DNA of 64,000 bases. Source: Eledone cirrhosa (lineage: Eukaryota). Location of the stretch: NCBI GenBank assembly GCA_964016885.1, contig OZ024745.1, forward strand, positions 122,264,001-122,328,000, written 5' to 3'. Of this stretch, positions 14,861-55,900 are shown one piece after another. A program made the position numbers and the translations under genes. Every line of letters starts with the position of its first letter. The stretch's first letter is position 1. The notes beneath the pieces were generated by a model, which had not been told where the DNA came from, made no database searches, and saw nothing but the letters and a program-made list of their open reading frames with translations.

Positions 14861-15476
14861 AGTAGATTGGCAGTATCGGTAGAGCATCAGATATGCCTTG
14901 CAACATAAAGTTACGTCTCTTTACGCTCTGAGTTTAAATCCCACCAAGGTTAGCGTTGCCTTTCATCCTTATGGGGTTGATAAAATAAAGTACTAGTAAT
15001 GCAATTAATCAACTTTCCCCTCCCCCAAAATTGTTGACCTTGTGCCTATATCAGAAACCATTATTGTTATCATAAGGATGGTGAATTAGTAGAATGATTA
15101 AAGCATCGAGCAGAATACTTTGCAGATAGTTTCCAAGTTCAAACTCTGCCAAAAATTAACTTCACCTTTCATCCTTCAGCTGTTGATAAAATAAAGCACC
15201 AGTAACAATCTGGGGCCAATTTAATCGCCTTTCCCCCTCCTCAAAATTGTTGGCCTTGTACCTAAATCAGAAATCATTATTATTAAGAGCAGTGAATTGG
15301 CAGTATCAGTGGAGGGTTGGACGCCATGCTTTCCAGCATAGTTACGTTCCTTTACAGTCAAATCTTGTCGAGGTTAACTTTGTCTTTCATCCTTAAGGGC
15401 TCGATAAAATAAAGTACCAGTAATGTACTGGGTAATTGCTGGCCTTGTGCCAAATGTAGAAAAAATTATTATTATT
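14861..15476 (+). mobile_element. Three tandem SINE family A copies
   Basis: Three successive ttggcagtatc...tttcatcc...aaataaag.accag...attatta units. Confidence 0.8.
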
Positions 15477-15979: not shown

Positions 15980-16048
15980 GTATGAAAACCAGATTAAAAA
16001 AAGAAACAAAAGAAAAAACCTTTTTGCTGTAATTCTAATTCATATTAT

Positions 16049-16424
16049 TAGTGGAATGGCAGTATCAGTAGAGGATTGGGCGCCATGCTTTGCAGCATAG
16101 AGTTACGGCCCTTTATGATCTGAGCTCAAATCCCGCCGAGGTTAACTTTGCCTTTCATCCATACGGGGTCGATAAAATAAAGTACCAGTAATGTACTGGG
16201 GTAATTGCTGGCTTTGTGCCAAAAGTAGAAACAATTATTAGTGGATTGGCAGTATCTGTAGACTGTCAGACATCATGCTTTGCAGTATAGTTATGGCCCT
16301 TTACGTTCTGAGTTCAAATCCCACCAAGGTTAACTTTACTTTTCATCCTTACAGAGTCAATAAAAAAGCACCAGTAAAGCACTGGGGTAATTGCTGGCCT
16401 TGTGCCAAACGTAGAAACAATTAT
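16049..16424 (+). mobile_element. Head-to-tail dimer of SINE family A; single copies also at 33531-33717 and 59464-59655, partial at 22258-22377 and 47295-47397
   Basis: Junction agaaacaattatt|agtggattggcag. Confidence 0.85.
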
Positions 16425-16459
16425 TTGTGTTACAACCACACAACTCTTCTACTTTCATT

Positions 16460-16772: not shown

Positions 16773-16815
<43 letters not shown>

Positions 16816-16816
<1 letters not shown>

Positions 16817-17332
16817 ATATGTTGAAAAGGTAACACACTAGAGAGAGATACAGTGCGCTATCAATAAAACAGGGAAAGACCACCAGTGTATGGAATCTAT
16901 AACCTATGAAAGGCAGAGTATACACACGATAATTAAAAATATAAATTAAAGCGTGAATAAATACCTCTATAACTATATAATACACGTACTGCCCTGCCCT
17001 TAAACACGCTGTGACTTCTCTCTCCCACGTGTAGCTGGACGGTCACTTTAAAAATTCTCTTAGTGTTGTCTGAAATGTATAGCCTTACACACGCTGATGA
17101 ACCGGGGTTATTTCATTTCTGTCAACAACTTACTGGTGAAACAGATCACTTTGGATTTGTACGTGTGTTATATAGTTATAGAGATATTTATTTATGCTTT
17201 AATTTATATTTTTAATTATCGTGTATATACTCTGCCTTTCCTAGGTTATAGATTCCATACACTGGTGGTTTTTCCCTGTTTTATTGATAGCGCACTGTAT
17301 CTCTCTCTAGTGTGTTATCTTTTCAACATATT
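16816..17332. repeat. ~174-bp inverted repeat (16816-16989 / 17159-17332) in a (TA)n-flanked Penelope/retrozyme-like element (~16776-17437)
   Basis: Arms are reverse complements with few mismatches; TA arrays on both sides. Confidence 0.9.
17087..17168 (+). ncRNA. Complete type I hammerhead ribozyme
   Basis: Stem I acacacg/cgtgtgt; CTGATGA; stem II accgg/ctggt; GAAA; stem III cagatc/gatttg; GTA triplet, predicted cleavage after 17161. Confidence 0.8.
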
Positions 17333-17564
17333 TATTTTAAAGAGCTCAGGATTTCCTCTCCTTTGAGCACATTATTTACAGGGAATGACGAGAGTCTATG
17401 GCTCCGTTAATTTATCGTGATATATATATATATATATGCAGCGAGACACGGTCACCCAACCTACCTTGCCTCTAGTGGGACAACTCCCGTCTAACCCATG
17501 CTAGCGTGAAAGATGGACATTAAAAGATGATGATGATGATATATATATATATATATCCTCCCCC

Positions 17565-17985
17565 TCATCATCACCGTTTAATGTCCACCTTCCATGCTAG
17601 CATGGGTTAGAGGGGTTGTCCCATTTGGGTCAGGTGATCGTATCCTGCTCATACAGAACTGTTTTTGGCTAGATTTCTATGGCTGGATGCTCTTCCTAAC
17701 GCCAACCACATTTACGGTGTGTTTACTGGGTGCTTTTTACTGTGACACCTACCCGACCATTTAACAGTGTGGACTGTGCTTTTTGCCATGACACCTACAC
17801 GACCACTTTAGAGTGAATCCTGGGTGCTTTTTGTTGTGACACCTACATGATCACTTTACAGTATAAACTGGGTGCTTTTTGTCCTGATTCCTACATGACC
17901 ACTTTACAGTGTCGGCTGGGTGCTTTTCATTGACTCCTACACGACTACCTTACCATGCAGGCTGGATGCCTTTTTGTGATACCAA
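17565..17985 (-). mobile_element. RTE 3'UTR-derived element with ~6 internal 48-bp repeats
   Basis: Reverse of the 5648-6032 type; related copies at 36490-36862 (+) and 50536-50780 (-). Confidence 0.75.
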
Positions 17986-30949: not shown

Positions 30950-31868
30950 AATGATGATGGTAGTGATTATGATGGTGGTGATTATGGTGGTGGTAATGAT
31001 GGTGGTGATTATGGTGGTGGTGATTATGGTGGTGGTGATAATGATGGTGATAATGGTGGTGGTGATAATGATGGTGGTGATTATGGTGGTGGTGATAATG
31101 ATGGTGGTGATAATGGTGGTGGTGATAATGATGGTGGTGATAATGGTGGTGGTGATAATGGTGGTGGTGATAATGGTGGTGGTGATAATGGTGGTGGTGA
31201 TAATGATGGTGGTGATAATGATGGTGGTGATAATGGTGGTGGTGATAATGGTGGTGGTGATAATGGTGGTGGTGATAATGATGGTGGTGATTATGATGGT
31301 GGTGATAATGATGGTGGTGATAATGATGGTGGTAATAATGATGGTGGTGATTATGATGGTGGTGATAATGATGGTGGTGATAATGATGGTGGTAATAATG
31401 ATGGTGGTGATTATGATTGTGGTGATTATGATGGTGGTGATAATGGTGGTGGTGATAATGATGGTGGTGATAATGGTGGTGGTGATAATGGTGGTGGTGA
31501 TAATGGTGGTGGTGATAATGATGGTGGTGATAATGGTGGTGGTGATAATGATGGTGGTGATTATGATGGTGGTGATAATGATGGTGGTGATAATGATGGT
31601 GATAATGGTGGTGGTGATAATGGTGGTGGTGATTATGATGGTGGTGATTATGATGGTGGTGATTATGGTGGTGGTGATTATGGTGGTGGTGATAATGATG
31701 GTGGTGATTATGGTGGTGGTGATAATGGTGGTGGTGATTATGATGGTGGTGATAATGGTGGTGATAATGATGGTGATAATGATGGTGGTGATAATGATGG
31801 TGGTGATAATGATGGTGGTGATTATGATGGTGGTAATAATAATGATGATGATGATTATGATGGTGGTA
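30950..31868. repeat. 15-bp-period (GAT/GGT/AAT/TAT) simple tandem repeat
   Basis: Units such as atgatggtggtgata / atggtggtggtgatt. Confidence 0.95.
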
Positions 31869-32619
31869 AAAACAGCAGCAAGTAATAACTACATCTTTCA
31901 TCACCATTCATTCCGTAATTTGAAAAAAAAAAAATAGAAATCCCCACCAATAATGATGGTGGTGGTGATGATGGTGGTGGTAAAATTACTGAAAATATTC
32001 TTTTTTCATCATCATTCATTCAATACCTCATTCAAAAAAACTAACAAAATATATCAACAACAGTAGTAATGGCGGTGGTAAAAGTAATAACTATATTGTT
32101 TTTTCATCATCATTCACTCATTCATTCAAAAAATCATCATCATCATTATCACCTTCAATGATGATGATGATGATGATAGTGATGATGATGATGATGGTGA
32201 TGGTGATTCTTTTTTTAAATACCACTACACATGGAATTTGTCAGAATGAATTCAGAGTAATGGGGACTGGGCTGGAAAGAAATGAGAACTGTCTTCAGCC
32301 AGTTTCGTTATCCTAAAATATAGAACAGCAGCAGTAATGGCAGCTTTTGCTGTTATTAGAGCTGTAGTAAAGCTGCCATTATTTTTGGGATGCTTAAACA
32401 AATGTGAGTTTATCATAAATTCTGTTTGTAGTGCTATATTGATTTTGATCAGTCTATTCTTTTACTGGTTTCATTGATACTCAACATCATCATCACCATT
32501 TTACGTTCATTCGTCTAACCCATGCTAGCAGTATGAGTGGCTGGTTATGGCTGGTTTGAACAGAAAGATGTGAGAGATCTCTGGCCACATATGACCGGTT
32601 TAAATGCTAAAGGGTTAAA

Positions 32620-38557: not shown

Positions 38558-41500
38558 GAGATAACCTATATCTATGGTCAACAGAATCCAGATCCAGTGA
38601 CACTGTAGACAGAGATAACCTATATCCATGGTCAACAGAATCCAGATCCAGTGACACTGTAGACAGAGATAACCTATATCTATGGTCAACAGAATCCAGA
38701 TCCAGTGACACTGTAGACAGAGATAACCTATATCTATGGTCAACAGAATCCAGATCCAGTGACACTGTAGACAGATAACCTATATCTATGGTCAACAGAA
38801 TCCAGATCCAGTGACACTGTAGACAGAGATAACCTATATCTATGGTCAACAGAATCCAGATCCAGTGACACTGTAGACAGATAACCTATATCTATGGTCA
38901 ACAGAATCCAGATCCAGTGACACTGTAGACAGAGATAACCTATATCTATGGTCAACAGAATCCAGATCCAGTGACACTGTAGACAGATAACCTATATCTA
39001 TGGTCAACAGAATCCAGATCCAGTGACACTGTAGACAGAGATAACCTATATCTATGGTCAACAGAATCCAGATCCAGTGACACTGTAGACAGAGATAACC
39101 TATATCTATGGTCAACAGAATCCAGATCCAGTGACACTGTAGACAGAGATAACCTATATCTATGGTCAACAGAATCCAGATCTAGTGACACTGTAGACAG
39201 ATAACCTATATCCATGGTCAACAGAATCCAGATCCAGTGACACTGTAGACAGAGATAACCTATATCTATGGTCAACAGAATCCAGATCCAGTGACACTGT
39301 AGACAGATAACCTATATCCATGGTCAACAGAATCCAGATCTAGTGACACTGTAGACAGATAACCTATATCCATGGTCAACAGAATCCAGATCCAGTGACA
39401 CTGTAGACAGAGATAACCTATATCTATGGTCAACAGAATCCAGATCCAGTGACACTGTAGACAGAGATAACCTATATCTATGGTCAACAGAATCCAGATC
39501 CAGTGACACTGTAGACAGAGATAACCTATATCTATGGTCAACAGAATCCAGATCCAGTGACACTGTAGACAGAGATAACCTATATCTATGGTCAACAGAA
39601 TCCAGATCCAGTGACACTGTAGACAGAGATAACCTATATCTATGGTCAACAGAATCCAGATCCAGTGACACTGTAGACAGAGATAACCTATATCTATGGT
39701 CAACAGAATCCAGATCTAGTGACACTGTAGACAGATAACCTATATCCATGGTCAACAGAATCCAGATCCAGTGACACTGTAGACAGAGATAACCTATATC
39801 TATGGTCAACAGAATCCAGATCCAGTGACACTGTAGACAGAGATAACCTATATCTATGGTCAACAGAATCCAGATCCAGTGACACTGTAGACAGAGATAA
39901 CCTATATCCATGGTCAACAGAATCCAGATCCAGTGACACTGTAGACAGAGATAACCTATATCTATGGTCAACAGAATCCAGATCCAGTGACACTGTAGAC
40001 AGAGATAACCTATATCTATGGTCAACAGAATCCAGATCCAGTGACACTGTAGACAGAGATAACCTATATCCATGGTCAACAGAATCCAGATCCAGTGACA
40101 CTGTAGACAGATAACCTATATCCATGGTCAACAGAATCCAGATCTAGTGACACTGTAGACAGAGATAACCTATATCCATGGTCAACAGAATCCAGATCCA
40201 GTGACACTGTAGACAGAGATAACCTATATCTATGGTCAACAGAATCCAGATCCAGTGACACTGTAGACAGAGATAACCTATATCTATGGTCAACAGAATC
40301 CAGATCCAGTGACACTGTAGACAGAGATAACCTATATCTATGGTCAACAGAATCCAGATCCAGTGACACTGTAGACAGAGATAACCTATATCCATGGTCA
40401 ACAGAATCCAGATCCAGTGACACTGTAGACAGATAACCTATATCCATGGTCAACAGAATCCAGATCTAGTGACACTGTAGACAGAGATAACCTATATCCA
40501 TGGTCAACAGAATCCAGATCTAGTGACACTGTAGACAGATAACCTATATCTATGGTCAACAGAATCCAGATCTAGTGACACTGTAGACAGAGATAACCTA
40601 TATCCATGGTCAACAGAATCCAGATCTAGTGACACTGTAGACAGAGATAACCTATATCTATGGTCAACAGAATCCAGATCCAGTGACACTGTAGACAGAG
40701 ATAACCTATATCTATGGTCAACAGAATCCAGATCCAGTGACACTGTAGACAGAGATAACCTATATCTATGGTCAACAGAATCCAGATCCAGTGACACTGT
40801 AGACAGAGATAACCTATATCTATGGTCAATAGAATCCAGATCTAGTGACACTGTAGACAGAGATAACCTATATCCATGGTCAACAGAATCCAGATCCAGT
40901 GACACTGTAGACAGAGATAACCTATATCTATGGTCAACAGAATCCAGATCTAGTGACACTGTAGACAGATAACCTATATCTATGGTCAACAGAATCCAGA
41001 TCTAGTGACACTGTAGACAGATAACCTATATCTATGGTCAACAGAATCCAGATCCAGTGACACTGTAGACAGAGATAACCTATATCTATGGTCAACAGAA
41101 TCCAGATCCAGTGACACTGTAGACAGAGATAACCTATATCTATGGTCAACAGAATCCAGATCCAGTGACACTGTAGACAGAGATAACCTATATCTATGGT
41201 CAACAGAATCCAGATCTAGTGACACTGTAGACAGATAACCTATATCTATGGTCAACAGAATCCAGATCTAGTGACACTGTAGACAGATAACCTATATCCA
41301 TGGTCAACAGAATCCAGATCTAGTGACACTGTAGACAGAGATAACCTATATCTATGGTCAACAGAATCCAGATCTAGTGACACTGTAGACAGATAACCTA
41401 TATCTATGGTCAACAGAATCCAGATCCAGTGACACTGTAGACAGAGATAACCTATATCTATGGTCAACAGAATCCAGATCTAGTGACACTGTAGACAGAG

Positions 41501-43078
41501 ATAACCTATATCTATGGTCAACAGAATCCAGATCCAGTGACACTGTAGACAGAGATAACCTATATCTATGGTCAACAGAATCCAGATCTAGTGACACTGT
41601 AGACAGATAACCTATATCTATGGTCAACAGAATCCAGATCTAGTGACACTGTAGACAGAGATAACCTATATCTATGGTCAACAGAATCCAGATCTAGTGA
41701 CACTGTAGACAGAGATAACCTATATCTATGGTCAACAGAATCCAGATCTAGTGACACTGTAGACAGAGATAACCTATATCTATGGTCAACAGAATCCAGA
41801 TCTAGTGACACTGTAGACAGAGATAACCTATATCCATGGTCAACAGAATCCAGATCTAGTGACACTGTAGACAGAGATAACCTATATCTATGGTCAACAG
41901 AATCCAGATCTAGTGACACTGTAGACAGAGATAACCTATATCCATGGTCAACAGAATCCAGATCCAGTGACACTGTAGACAGAGATAACCTATATCTATG
42001 GTCAACAGAATCCAGATCCAGTGACACTGTAGACAGATAACCTATATCCATGGTCAACAGAATCCAGATCTAGTGACACTGTAGACAGATAACCTATATC
42101 CATGGTCAACAGAATCCAGATCCAGTGACACTGTAGACAGAGATAACCTATATCTATGGTCAACAGAATCCAGATCCAGTGACACTGTAGACAGAGATAA
42201 CCTATATCCATGGTCAACAGAATCCAGATCCAGTGACACTGTAGACAGATAACCTATATCCATGGTCAACAGAATCCAGATCTAGTGACACTGTAGACAG
42301 AGATAACCTATATCTATGGTCAACAGAATCCAGATCCAGTGACACTGTAGACAGAGATAACCTATATCTATGGTCAACAGAATCCAGATCCAGTGACACT
42401 GTAGACAGAGATAACCTATATCTATGGTCAACAGAATCCAGATCCAGTGACACTGTAGACAGAGATAACCTATATCTATGGTCAACAGAATCCAGATCCA
42501 GTGACACTGTAGACAGAGATAACCTATATCTATGGTCAACAGAATCCAGATCCAGTGACACTGTAGACAGAGATAACCTATATCTATGGTCAACAGAATC
42601 CAGATCTAGTGACACTGTAGACAGAGATAACCTATATCCATGGTCAACAGAATCCAGATCCAGTGACACTGTAGACAGAGATAACCTATATCTATGGTCA
42701 ACAGAATCCAGATCCAGTGACACTGTAGACAGATAACCTATATCCATGGTCAACAGAATCCAGATCTAGTGACACTGTAGACAGAGATAACCTATATCTA
42801 TGGTCAACAGAATCCAGATCCAGTGACACTGTAGACAGAGATAACCTATATCTATGGTCAACAGAATCCAGATCCAGTGACACTGTAGACAGAGATAACC
42901 TATATCTATGGTCAACAGAATCCAGATCTAGTGACACTGTAGACAGATAACCTATATCCATGGTCAACAGAATCCAGATCTAGTGACACTGTAGACAGAT
43001 AACCTATATCTATGGTCAACAGAATCCAGATCTAGTGACACTGTAGACAGAGATAACCTATATCTATGGTCAACAGAA
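38558..43078. repeat. 4.5-kb homogeneous 54/52-bp minisatellite (~84 units, estimated from length)
   Basis: gagataacctatatc(t/c)atggtcaacagaatccagatc(c/t)agtgacactgtagaca with an optional GA deletion. Confidence 0.98.
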
Positions 43079-52930: not shown

Positions 52931-55900
52931 TCATCATCATCATCATCTTCGTTTAACGGCCATTTTCCACGCTAGCATGGGTTAGACGGGAGTTGTCCCA
53001 CTTGAGGCAAGGTTGGTCGGGTGACCATGTCTCTCTCATATAGGACTATCTGGCAGGTTTTCTACGGCTGGATGCCCTTCCTAACACCAACCACATTTAC
53101 AGTGTGGAACTGGGAACTTTTTACCGTGTTACCTACACAGCCACATTACAGCGTGGACTGTGTGCTTTTTCTTGTGACACCTACACGCTCTTGATCTCAT
53201 TTATCTCATTTATTTGGACTGGATGTTGTGGTGCCAACTTTATAGAGAGAGGGTGGTGTTGGTGGGAGTGGGAGGGTAGGAGTAGTGGATTGGGGTGTAT
53301 ATTTGGTTAAGAGGTGCCTACTGACTGTAGGTTTCCTTTTGTACATAGGCAAGGCGGGTCTTCTGTATTACTGCGTAGCGCCAAAGATCTCGGTCCAGTG
53401 ACATTGTCTTAGAGAGGTGTAAGGTCGGAATTTATCAGATCGTCCCAGGTTTTTCTGGGTCTACCTACTCCATAACTACCATCAATTTTGATCGCCCTGC
53501 ACTTTTTTATATAGCTGTCGTCTTTCATGCGCATCACATGGCCATACCAACGTAGTCTTCTCTCGAGTAAATAGCATCTGATCCCTCTTATTCCTAATTT
53601 CTCACTTAGTTCATTTATGCTTTGCCGTTCACGTATATTACTATTACACATCCAACGGAGCATGCATGCTTCGTTCCTTTCCAGTCTACGCAGGGCCTCT
53701 GCACGCAATGCCCATGTCTCACTGCCATGTAGCATTGCTGTTTGTATACAAGCATCATACAATCTGCCTTTCATTTTTAGAGAGAAACCTTTTGTAGCCA
53801 ACAGCGGTATAAGCTCTCTGAACTTTTTCCATCCCGTTCTAACTCTGGCCACTGTACTTTCAAAACACCCTCCACCACTGATGATTTCGACACCCAGGTA
53901 ACGGAAAGTGTCTACTATTTCTATAGAACCATCGGGGTAATAGAAGGGGCTAGTATCCTGTGGACACTTGCTACCTATTGCACCTGAGCATCGACCACAT
54001 ATAAAGTCTACCTTCTTAGATAGTTTACCTGTGATCCCACTACATCTTTTATGTACCCATACTTTGCATTTGGGACATAAAATTGAATTTCTGCCTACTC
54101 CTTTCCTACACACTGAGCAAGGCCATTTCCCTGAGGGTTCCTGTGCCTTATTTTCCTTTCTACAAACTAGGACTTTAGTCTTAGACAAGTTAACTTTAAG
54201 GCCTTTTGATTCTAGGCCATGCTTCCATGTTTGGAATTTCTTTTCTAGTTCAGCCATTGATTCAGCTATGAGCGTTAGATCATCTGCGTATAGGAGTTCC
54301 CATGGGCAGCCGGTCTTGAACTCCTTTGTTATAGCCTGAAGGGCAATAATAAATTGGAGGGGGCTAAGGACAGAGCCTTGGTGAACACCAACTTTTACAC
54401 TAAATTCTTCACAATATTCATTGTTAATTCTAACCTTACTGACTGTTTCATTATACATGGCTTGTATAGCTCTCACAAGCCATTCATCTACACCTAGTTT
54501 TCTAAGAGCCCACCAGATAATGGAGCGGGGGACTCTGTCAAAGGCTTTTTCCAGGTGTACAAAAGCTAAGTAGAGGGGTTTACTTTTAGCTAGGTACTTC
54601 TCTTGTAGTTGTCGTACAAGGAAAAGAGCGTCTGTGGTACTTTTACTTGACACAAACCCAAACTGCATTGCATCTAGATCAATTTGCTCTCTGATTAGTT
54701 GCACTATAACTCTTTCTGTGACCTTCATGACCTGGTCAACTAACTTAATGCCTCTATAGTTTCCCCTATCTAGAGCATCCCCTTTACCCTTGTAGCAGTT
54801 AGTGATGATGCTGCTACGCCAGTTTTTTGGTATGACCCCATTCTGTATTACTTGGTTAACTATACGGGTGACCATAGTGTGTCACACCATACCAGATGCC
54901 TTCAACATCTCAGCAACTATCTCCGAAGGCCCAGCTGCCTTGCCTGTCTTCATATCTTTGATTGCCTTACTTATTATACTACCTTTAACTTGCACCGCTG
55001 GTCCTTCTATTGGATCGATTTGGGGTAGACTATCTTTTTCTCACTTATTCTCCTCATTTAATAGTCTCTCGTAGTGACACTTCCAAGCTATCTTCTTATC
55101 AGCATCAGTGAGGGCAAGTACACCGTTATCATTACGGACACACTTCTCCCCGACAATATCACAGTTTTCCTTGACACATTGTCTAGCAATCCTGAACATC
55201 TCACGTTTTTGGTCCTCACGTTGTAGAACATGCTTGAACTTTCTATCCTCTGCTTCTCTTTTTGCAAGGTACACTTGTCTCCTATCTTTTCTCCTGGCCA
55301 CTTGATAGTGCTTTCTACTTCCCCCCATCCTGCCATTCTTTCCAAGCCTGCTTTTTGGCCTTGATTGTCTCTTCTACCTTACTGTTCCACCACTAAGTTA
55401 CTCTCCTCCTGCCAATAGGTCTGCTCCAGCCACAGATTTCATCCGTTGCTTTCAGCAGGTTCACTTTCAAGCATTGCCACTGTTCCTCTATATCGCACGT
55501 CTCTAATTGCTCTTCCTTATTGTCAAAGGCATCAAGTAATAAGCTTTTAAATTTGTCACTGGCTATGGGGTCCTTCAACTTCCATATTCTTCTCCTCAAG
55601 GTAGGCCACCTCTGTCATCGAGTACGTCTATTTCTGACTGTGAGGTCACTTTGGGAGGTGTGTTCTTCATGGGGGAGGGATTTAGTGTTTACAACAGACA
55701 CTTTGTCCCGTCTTCTAGTAAGGATATAATCTATCTGGCTGGCGTGTTCCCCTGATCTATAGGTGATCAAGTGATTTTCACGTTTTTTGAAGTTTGTGTT
55801 ACAGATAGTTAGGTTATTGGCATCACAGAATTCCAGGATTCTGAAGCCTTCCTCATTTCTTATTCCAACCCCATAGCCTCCATGGATTCCATCATAACCA

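Follow-up and report, generated by a model that had tools for sequence, protein, structure and literature searches.

Introduction

In L1 twin priming, both target strands prime on one RNA, which gives an inverted 5' part. For Penelope-like insertions, the accessible parts of PMC8557442 and PMC3846280 give a qualitative account of tails confined to one end, and the former calls the formation of tandem, inverted and tailed insertions open. In the Poseidon element of anole, two internal reverse transcriptase (RT) start sites flank the tail, and both strands are cut and extended in vitro (PMC11167929). The same work predicts a dimer of the protein and describes an AC-rich stem loop. Ribozyme mutants were without effect on insertion of the anole element, showing that cleavage is not needed, and its start sites exhibit no strand preference, which counts against strand-specific priming at two sites such as A and B below (PMC11167929).

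As far as the accessible text of PMC7229834 and bioRxiv 10.64898/2026.07.22.740005 extends, retrozymes have already been published as non-autonomous Penelope-like elements, and the partner of animal retrozymes has so far been inferred from co-occurrence and pLTR trees. The main text of the latter (Li, Clavereau and Pollet 2026) contains neither 'tail' nor 'octopus', and 'ribozyme' is absent from the main text of an octopus repeat annotation (PMC13282606).

Here we describe a locus from a window of 64 kb, the whole stretch of DNA that was analysed. It is a two-armed insertion of a non-coding hammerhead repeat, probably a non-LTR retrozyme, i.e. a non-autonomous Penelope-like element, for which an RT-endonuclease of the Hydra clade would provide mobilisation. 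Judged from its sequence, the element would be of a known kind, the new parts being a candidate priming signal and a candidate partner.

Results and Discussion

Structure of the insertion and its ribozyme

The layout of the copy and the elements of its predicted ribozyme are as follows (window positions).

16776..16812: target array (AT)n, left side
16814..16989, minus strand: inverted arm; outer end is fixed site A (monomer ~175); 96% identity to the family ruler
16987..16993: inner head-to-head junction; 2-nt overlap and short duplication of the first bases of the forward arm
16994..17423, plus strand: forward arm; 5' end truncated at monomer 376; passes the ribozyme and ends at fixed site B (~261-265)
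17087..17168, plus strand: predicted type I hammerhead ribozyme motif; predicted cut 17161|17162
17087-93/17162-68: hammerhead stem I, 7 bp
17094-100: hammerhead core CUGAUGA
17101-05/17133-37: hammerhead stem II
17138-41: hammerhead core GAAA
17141-47/17154-60: hammerhead stem III
17159-61: hammerhead GUA, predicted cut directly 3'
17333..17419, plus strand: tail from site A to site B, ~88 nt, on the forward arm only
17344..17368, plus strand: hairpin that follows site A, closed by a GCUC/GAGC stem and containing a UU bulge
17420..17437: target array (AT)n, right side

The segments 16816-16989 and 17159-17332 form an inverted repeat of 174 nt with 95% identity. An initial annotation of this DNA had reported fold-back arms of 174 bp, the right one starting at 17159 and thus at most 3 nt from the cut, within a non-coding unit between (TA)n arrays. 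Both the arm coordinates and the setting were confirmed, with (AT)n at 16776-16812 and 17420-17437 and no ORF of at least 180 aa overlapping the unit in the 64-kb window. At its inner end the inverted arm contains the GUA and runs 1-3 nt past the predicted cut; its last 2 nt fit the forward segment equally well. Next to the element, at 17486-17615, there is a 69-nt palindrome in which two ends of another repeat lie inverted on either side of a TA array. Elsewhere the window holds a 54-bp satellite (38558-43078, 84 copies), a 15-bp repeat (30954-31869, 62 copies) and, at 53409-54881 on the minus strand, a 490-aa open frame resembling by eye a non-LTR reverse transcriptase.

All elements of the full hammerhead annotated previously, three stems and the core, were located at 17087-17168, and this segment displays the complete type I set, i.e. 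CUGANGA, GAAA and NUH core, stems I-III and an open stem I. A descriptor scan of the 64-kb window returned this segment as its sole match, the same descriptor finding any match in 1 of 200 second-order Markov controls, whereas the Rfam hammerhead models gave no match for the motif at gathering score, nor at E<=10. The long loop of stem II may be a reason for the Rfam miss. The hammerhead fold has -18.6 kcal/mol, which is 0.9 kcal/mol short of the free minimum at -19.5 kcal/mol, and the unconstrained fold of the ribozyme region retains stem I alone.

Stem II is weak across the family, with 59% of its cells pairing; its base pair next to the core (10.1-11.1) is A-U in this copy and A-C in 70 of 103 copies. 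According to the stem pair counts in family alignment A2, covariation is no better than in shuffles, and the core invariance of A2 is circular because its rows were picked by core pattern. Across copies, the 12 core letters vary by 1.2%, compared to 5.4% elsewhere in the monomer (p=0.0009). One subfamily carries a compensatory AU-to-GC pair in stem I.

Repeat family and fixed ends

In the 3.0-Gb genome 3,284 candidate places for the element were found, 40 of which were scored; the full-length ones are 94-96% identical. Three contig sets of one sample likewise exhibit a high copy number. The repeat unit is a 543-bp monomer (m1 being the first base after the cut) that forms partial tandems of up to ~3 monomers, and the copies are mostly dispersed, 5'-truncated, arranged head-to-head and inserted in (TA)n. 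A subfamily at 73% identity has kept the ribozyme core and both fixed ends. The previous assignment to a non-autonomous, ribozyme-bearing retroelement related to Penelope is supported, and its copies are numerous.

At the family level the monomer is non-coding, with no conserved ORF and no ORF for RT plus GIY-YIG. A short frame after the tail was rejected as a gene for lack of conservation, its length being 22 aa in 21 of 40 copies; its best 150 genome matches are all situated within frames not exceeding 157 aa. An intron-like GT..CAG pair at monomer 23-222 (window ~17184-17383) is kept in all three subfamilies, and a search for the spliced form of this GT..AG stretch gave 0 matches to the spliced junction. 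A tRNA-like SINE is found repeatedly at monomer ~213-228, inside the tail (L154, L161, L187, L102), and also at window 14893-15432 and 16044-16429.

Two positions of the monomer adjoin (TA)n as fixed ends, namely site A (m~173-177) with 469 and site B (m~261-265) with 645 exact junction matches genome-wide, compared to 0 matches for the reversed-pattern controls of both. The distance of ~88 nt between them corresponds to the Penelope-like 'tail', and the letters following A as well as B are able to pair with a TA primer. The signature of a Penelope-like insertion is present, with an inverted 5'-truncated copy at the 5' end and the tail at one end only; any target-site duplication would be masked by the (TA)n sequence.

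Candidate hairpin signal and candidate partner

Just 3' of each site, A and B, lies a GCUC/GAGC hairpin, mostly with a UU bulge on its 3' side. The lowest-energy fold of some B hairpins places the bulge differently, and in subfamily C the A hairpin of the copy tested folds differently. For the A hairpin, the definition was derived post hoc on the basis of three families before serving to identify further ones. Two unrelated repeats in GIY-YIG loci have tails that start with the GCUC..GAGC hairpin seen in the 543-bp element, and the post hoc motif search uncovered more families that insert into TA, as well as an element whose frame resembles an endonuclease. The B hairpin was first seen in the candidate partner described below and then in three of four other families at a background of 1.2% per site: the 543-bp element, the L286 family and the L235 family, the last with a compensated UCUC/GAGA stem. 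In the L054 family it was not found at the expected site. The two hairpins are spaced by 83 nt in the 543-bp element and by 92 nt in the candidate partner. Since the B hairpin lies just beyond site B in the monomer, it is absent from the present copy; we infer that the B signal, being uncopied into the B end, is supplied by the next monomer or by a circle.

At least four more sequence-unrelated TA-inserting repeats share the tail hairpin (L235/L076/L044; L197/L228/L243/L286; L054; L225). Some of these are tandem at 560-690 bp, and a hammerhead was seen in two families. The hairpin-sharing repeats are likely further retrozyme families of the same partner.

Alongside the 543-bp repeat the genome carries many RT plus GIY-YIG families, among them that of the candidate partner.

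G000:C1002:8000-17900, minus strand: candidate partner L339, autonomous Penelope-like element with an 844-aa RT-endonuclease frame

In this element the tandem unit measures 5.1 kb, the tail ~90 nt, and the target is (TA)n; a hammerhead and both hairpins are also present. Its family is abundant and young, being 88-100% identical among the 150 copies listed, many of which have the 844-aa frame. The frame displays the motifs RWR, DKT, CxCX5C, YRDD, YIG and CxxC/CxH; Pfam gave no match for the whole of it and a weak GIY-YIG match (E 0.011) at the C-terminus. Placed by motifs alone, L339 fits the Hydra clade as a candidate member. Ends of the A+B type occur in 10 of 11 head-to-head pairs of the partner family, and the eleventh, with identical flanks on both sides, is read as a later duplication. 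Two Hydra-like copies (L341, L342) lie in an inverted duplication with near-identical flanks at G000:C6:49147200-49158500, which represents either a segmental duplication or an assembly artefact.

Based on shared structure without DNA homology, the 844-aa Hydra-like element is the likely partner of the 543-bp repeat. Beyond AT-rich noise, no DNA homology of the monomer was found to this candidate or to 50 other GIY-YIG loci, nor was pLTR homology detected in the 50 GIY-YIG loci or the Hydra-like unit. One locus (L199), considered as a partner match, proved to be a short copy of the 543-bp repeat in a TA array. The missing homology to the Hydra-like element would also agree with mobilisation by another Penelope-like family, Neptune-like or a different Hydra family, in which case the hairpins would be incidental. 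Several RT plus GIY-YIG families, Neptune-like ones among them, indeed insert into (TA)n and bear a tail at one end but not at the other (13 readable cases; a further 10 GIY-YIG loci with inverted repeats had unreadable ends and are not part of the score). We nevertheless consider a different partner unlikely: the GCUC/GAGC motif occurs in 0 of 4 Neptune-like tails, which are also shorter, and the second hairpin turned up where it had been predicted. Neptune-like RT plus GIY-YIG families are represented by L228, L229, L234, L240, L225, L230 and L231; one such family has, at its end, a ~50-nt tail together with a minimal hammerhead, and Neptune-like tails share a short CGTGT-type motif in place of the hairpin.

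Pairing of the ends and likeness of the arms

A total of 125 head-to-head junctions was collected, 85 of them scorable at both ends and 40 with an unscorable end. The scorable junctions comprise 81 of type A+B, one A+A and three B+B, meaning that the rule of one A and one B end is broken in 4 of 85 insertions. Where loci were chosen by an internal motif, so that neither end was selected, all 14 scorable cases (of 28) were A+B, compared to a ceiling of 50% for independent choice (p=6e-5). Within an insertion the arms mismatch by 4.0%, versus 7.0% to other insertions (n=31), and adjacent monomers differ by 5.5% versus 9.9% (n=30, with segments as long as ~1,620 nt). As far as sequence likeness can tell, this would be consistent with one uncleaved tandem or circular RNA as template; alternatively, gene conversion or one source locus could account for it. 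At the inner junctions (n=81), an overlap of at least 1 nt was observed in 43, a blunt join in 9 and extra bases in 29.

Two independent insertions, or two RNAs per site, followed by gene conversion might be suspected from the single-armed state of about a third of the A-selected loci and from the fact that the own partner arm is not always the closest match. Independent choice, however, cannot yield 81 of 85 A+B junctions, and the A+B rule is also found in autonomous families, which makes such a double event very improbable.

Inner breakpoints and the ribozyme cut

The initial annotation had further proposed that the inverted end arose by copying the self-cleaved RNA to its end. In favour of such an arm, i.e. 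cDNA run off the 5' end of cleaved RNA, this copy's arm ends within 3 nt of the cut, one of 89 other arms (L097) ends exactly there, and four truncations at the cut are found genome-wide. The breakpoints were investigated in 90 of the first 100 of the 469 exact outer-junction matches, all from contigs C1-C2, with one duplicate removed to leave 89 inverted arms. Their inner ends are scattered from 19 to 1,130 nt with a median of 229 nt, and 14 arms are longer than one monomer. Among the 56 arms reaching the cut, two stop at most 4 nt from it, compared to 1.74 expected (p=0.52); 54 of these 56 at risk (of 89) cross it and 43 cross the whole ribozyme. Of the forward arms at risk, 0 of 21 stop at the cut. 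Genome-wide patterns, compared as unnormalised counts, gave 9 matches at the cut with 4 true truncations, and a single control site 4 nt away gave 7 matches, again with 4 true truncations. In two of the four true truncations at the cut, the join runs through the 7-nt stem I repeat. Most of another set of 243 matches were not truncations but members of a subfamily with a stem I differing by 2 bp. At L183 and L184 the inner junctions are joined via the 7-nt stem I repeat of the ribozyme.

The inversion breakpoints do not cluster at the cut, and the constant point of the inverted arm is its outer rather than its inner end. With ~2% of arms expected this close to the cut, the match in the present copy is likely due to chance. 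The proposed copying to a self-cleaved end was not supported, and across the family run-off is hardly a credible origin of the inverted arms, though it may have occurred in this one copy. Because a template cut at both ends gives arms of at most 173 nt, the template appears to have been mostly circular or uncleaved RNA; the read-through of the cut would fit either an uncleaved multimer or a circle. Where the DNA copies end is not set by the ribozyme cut. The inverted terminal arms and TA flanks might call to mind a DNA transposon of the MITE or fold-back type, bounded by terminal inverted repeats. Such an origin can practically be dismissed, since the arm length varies from 19 to more than 1,100 nt, the ends differ by a tail and the copies are 5'-truncated tandem monomers with a ribozyme.

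Proposed mechanism

For the two-armed insertion we propose that a tandem or circular RNA would be bound by the partner at the two hairpins, probably as a dimer. The partner would nick both strands of a (TA)n array, and a cDNA started at A would be primed on one strand and a cDNA started at B on the opposite one, aided by GUAU/GAUAU pairing to the target. Both cDNAs may then stop at random, and end-joining would link them head to head. The role of the ribozyme would be to process multimeric transcripts into monomers, which then circularise, without setting the inversion breakpoint.

More tentatively, and with somewhat less than even expectation, symmetric two-site priming could be a property of the Hydra clade, with a dimer recognising a pair of UU-bulged GCUC/GAGC hairpins ~90 nt apart on a single tandem or circular RNA and starting a cDNA on either target strand. 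Several hammerhead circles of this genome, unrelated in sequence, could parasitise it by retaining nothing but the hairpin pair. If true, two-site priming would explain why Penelope-like insertions have a tail and inverted ends, and the hairpin pair would be a direct cis-signal link from animal retrozymes to a named partner.

Comparison with known systems

In the accessible parts of the literature searched, no description of the 543-bp family, of a counted A+B rule or of the hairpin pair was found. The family offers hundreds of scorable junctions and a near-strict rule of one A and one B end, and it brings with it a candidate for a short RNA signal and one for the enzyme, the latter intact; both questions, how the insertions are formed and which partner retrozymes use, thereby become testable in vitro.

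Similar to the metazoan non-LTR retrozymes described in the accessible text of PMC7229834 (Cervera and de la Pena 2020) and bioRxiv 10.64898/2026.07.22.740005, the element has a tandem non-coding monomer, a type I hammerhead, low GC and thousands of copies. It co-occurs with Penelope-like elements, and, as for those retrozymes, a circular or tandem template is proposed. In contrast, its monomer measures 543 bp compared to the 150-450 bp described in the accessible part of PMC7229834, and, again relative to the available descriptions, the family is mostly dispersed, 5'-truncated and head-to-head, with at most ~3 monomers, (TA)n targets and two fixed ends.

With endonuclease-containing Penelope-like elements, as depicted in the accessible parts of PMC8557442 and PMC3846280, the family shares partial tandems, an inverted truncated copy and a tail often at one end only; an AT-rich target and a hammerhead upstream of the start sites are further common features (PMC8557442, PMC3846280, PMC11167929; accessible text). 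Compared to what these sources give, the 543-bp element differs by having no ORF and by a tail of ~88 nt instead of 30-40, by A+B ends that are here counted as nearly strict and by a bulged hairpin that recurs on the 3' side of both start sites. The candidate partner resembles the Hydra clade, as characterised in the accessible text of PMC8557442, in DKT, CxCX5C and CxxC/CxH around E and N; it also shares the hammerhead, the insertion into (TA)n and a GIY-YIG-like domain at the C-terminus. It departs from that description with RWR in place of RWK and a length of 5.1 kb compared to generally <3 kb.

As in L1 twin priming, both target strands would be primed on one RNA in the insertion proposed here, resulting in an inverted 5' part. 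Unlike in twin priming, the site of second priming is constant, the two arms have sequence in common, and a tandem or circular RNA would act as template.
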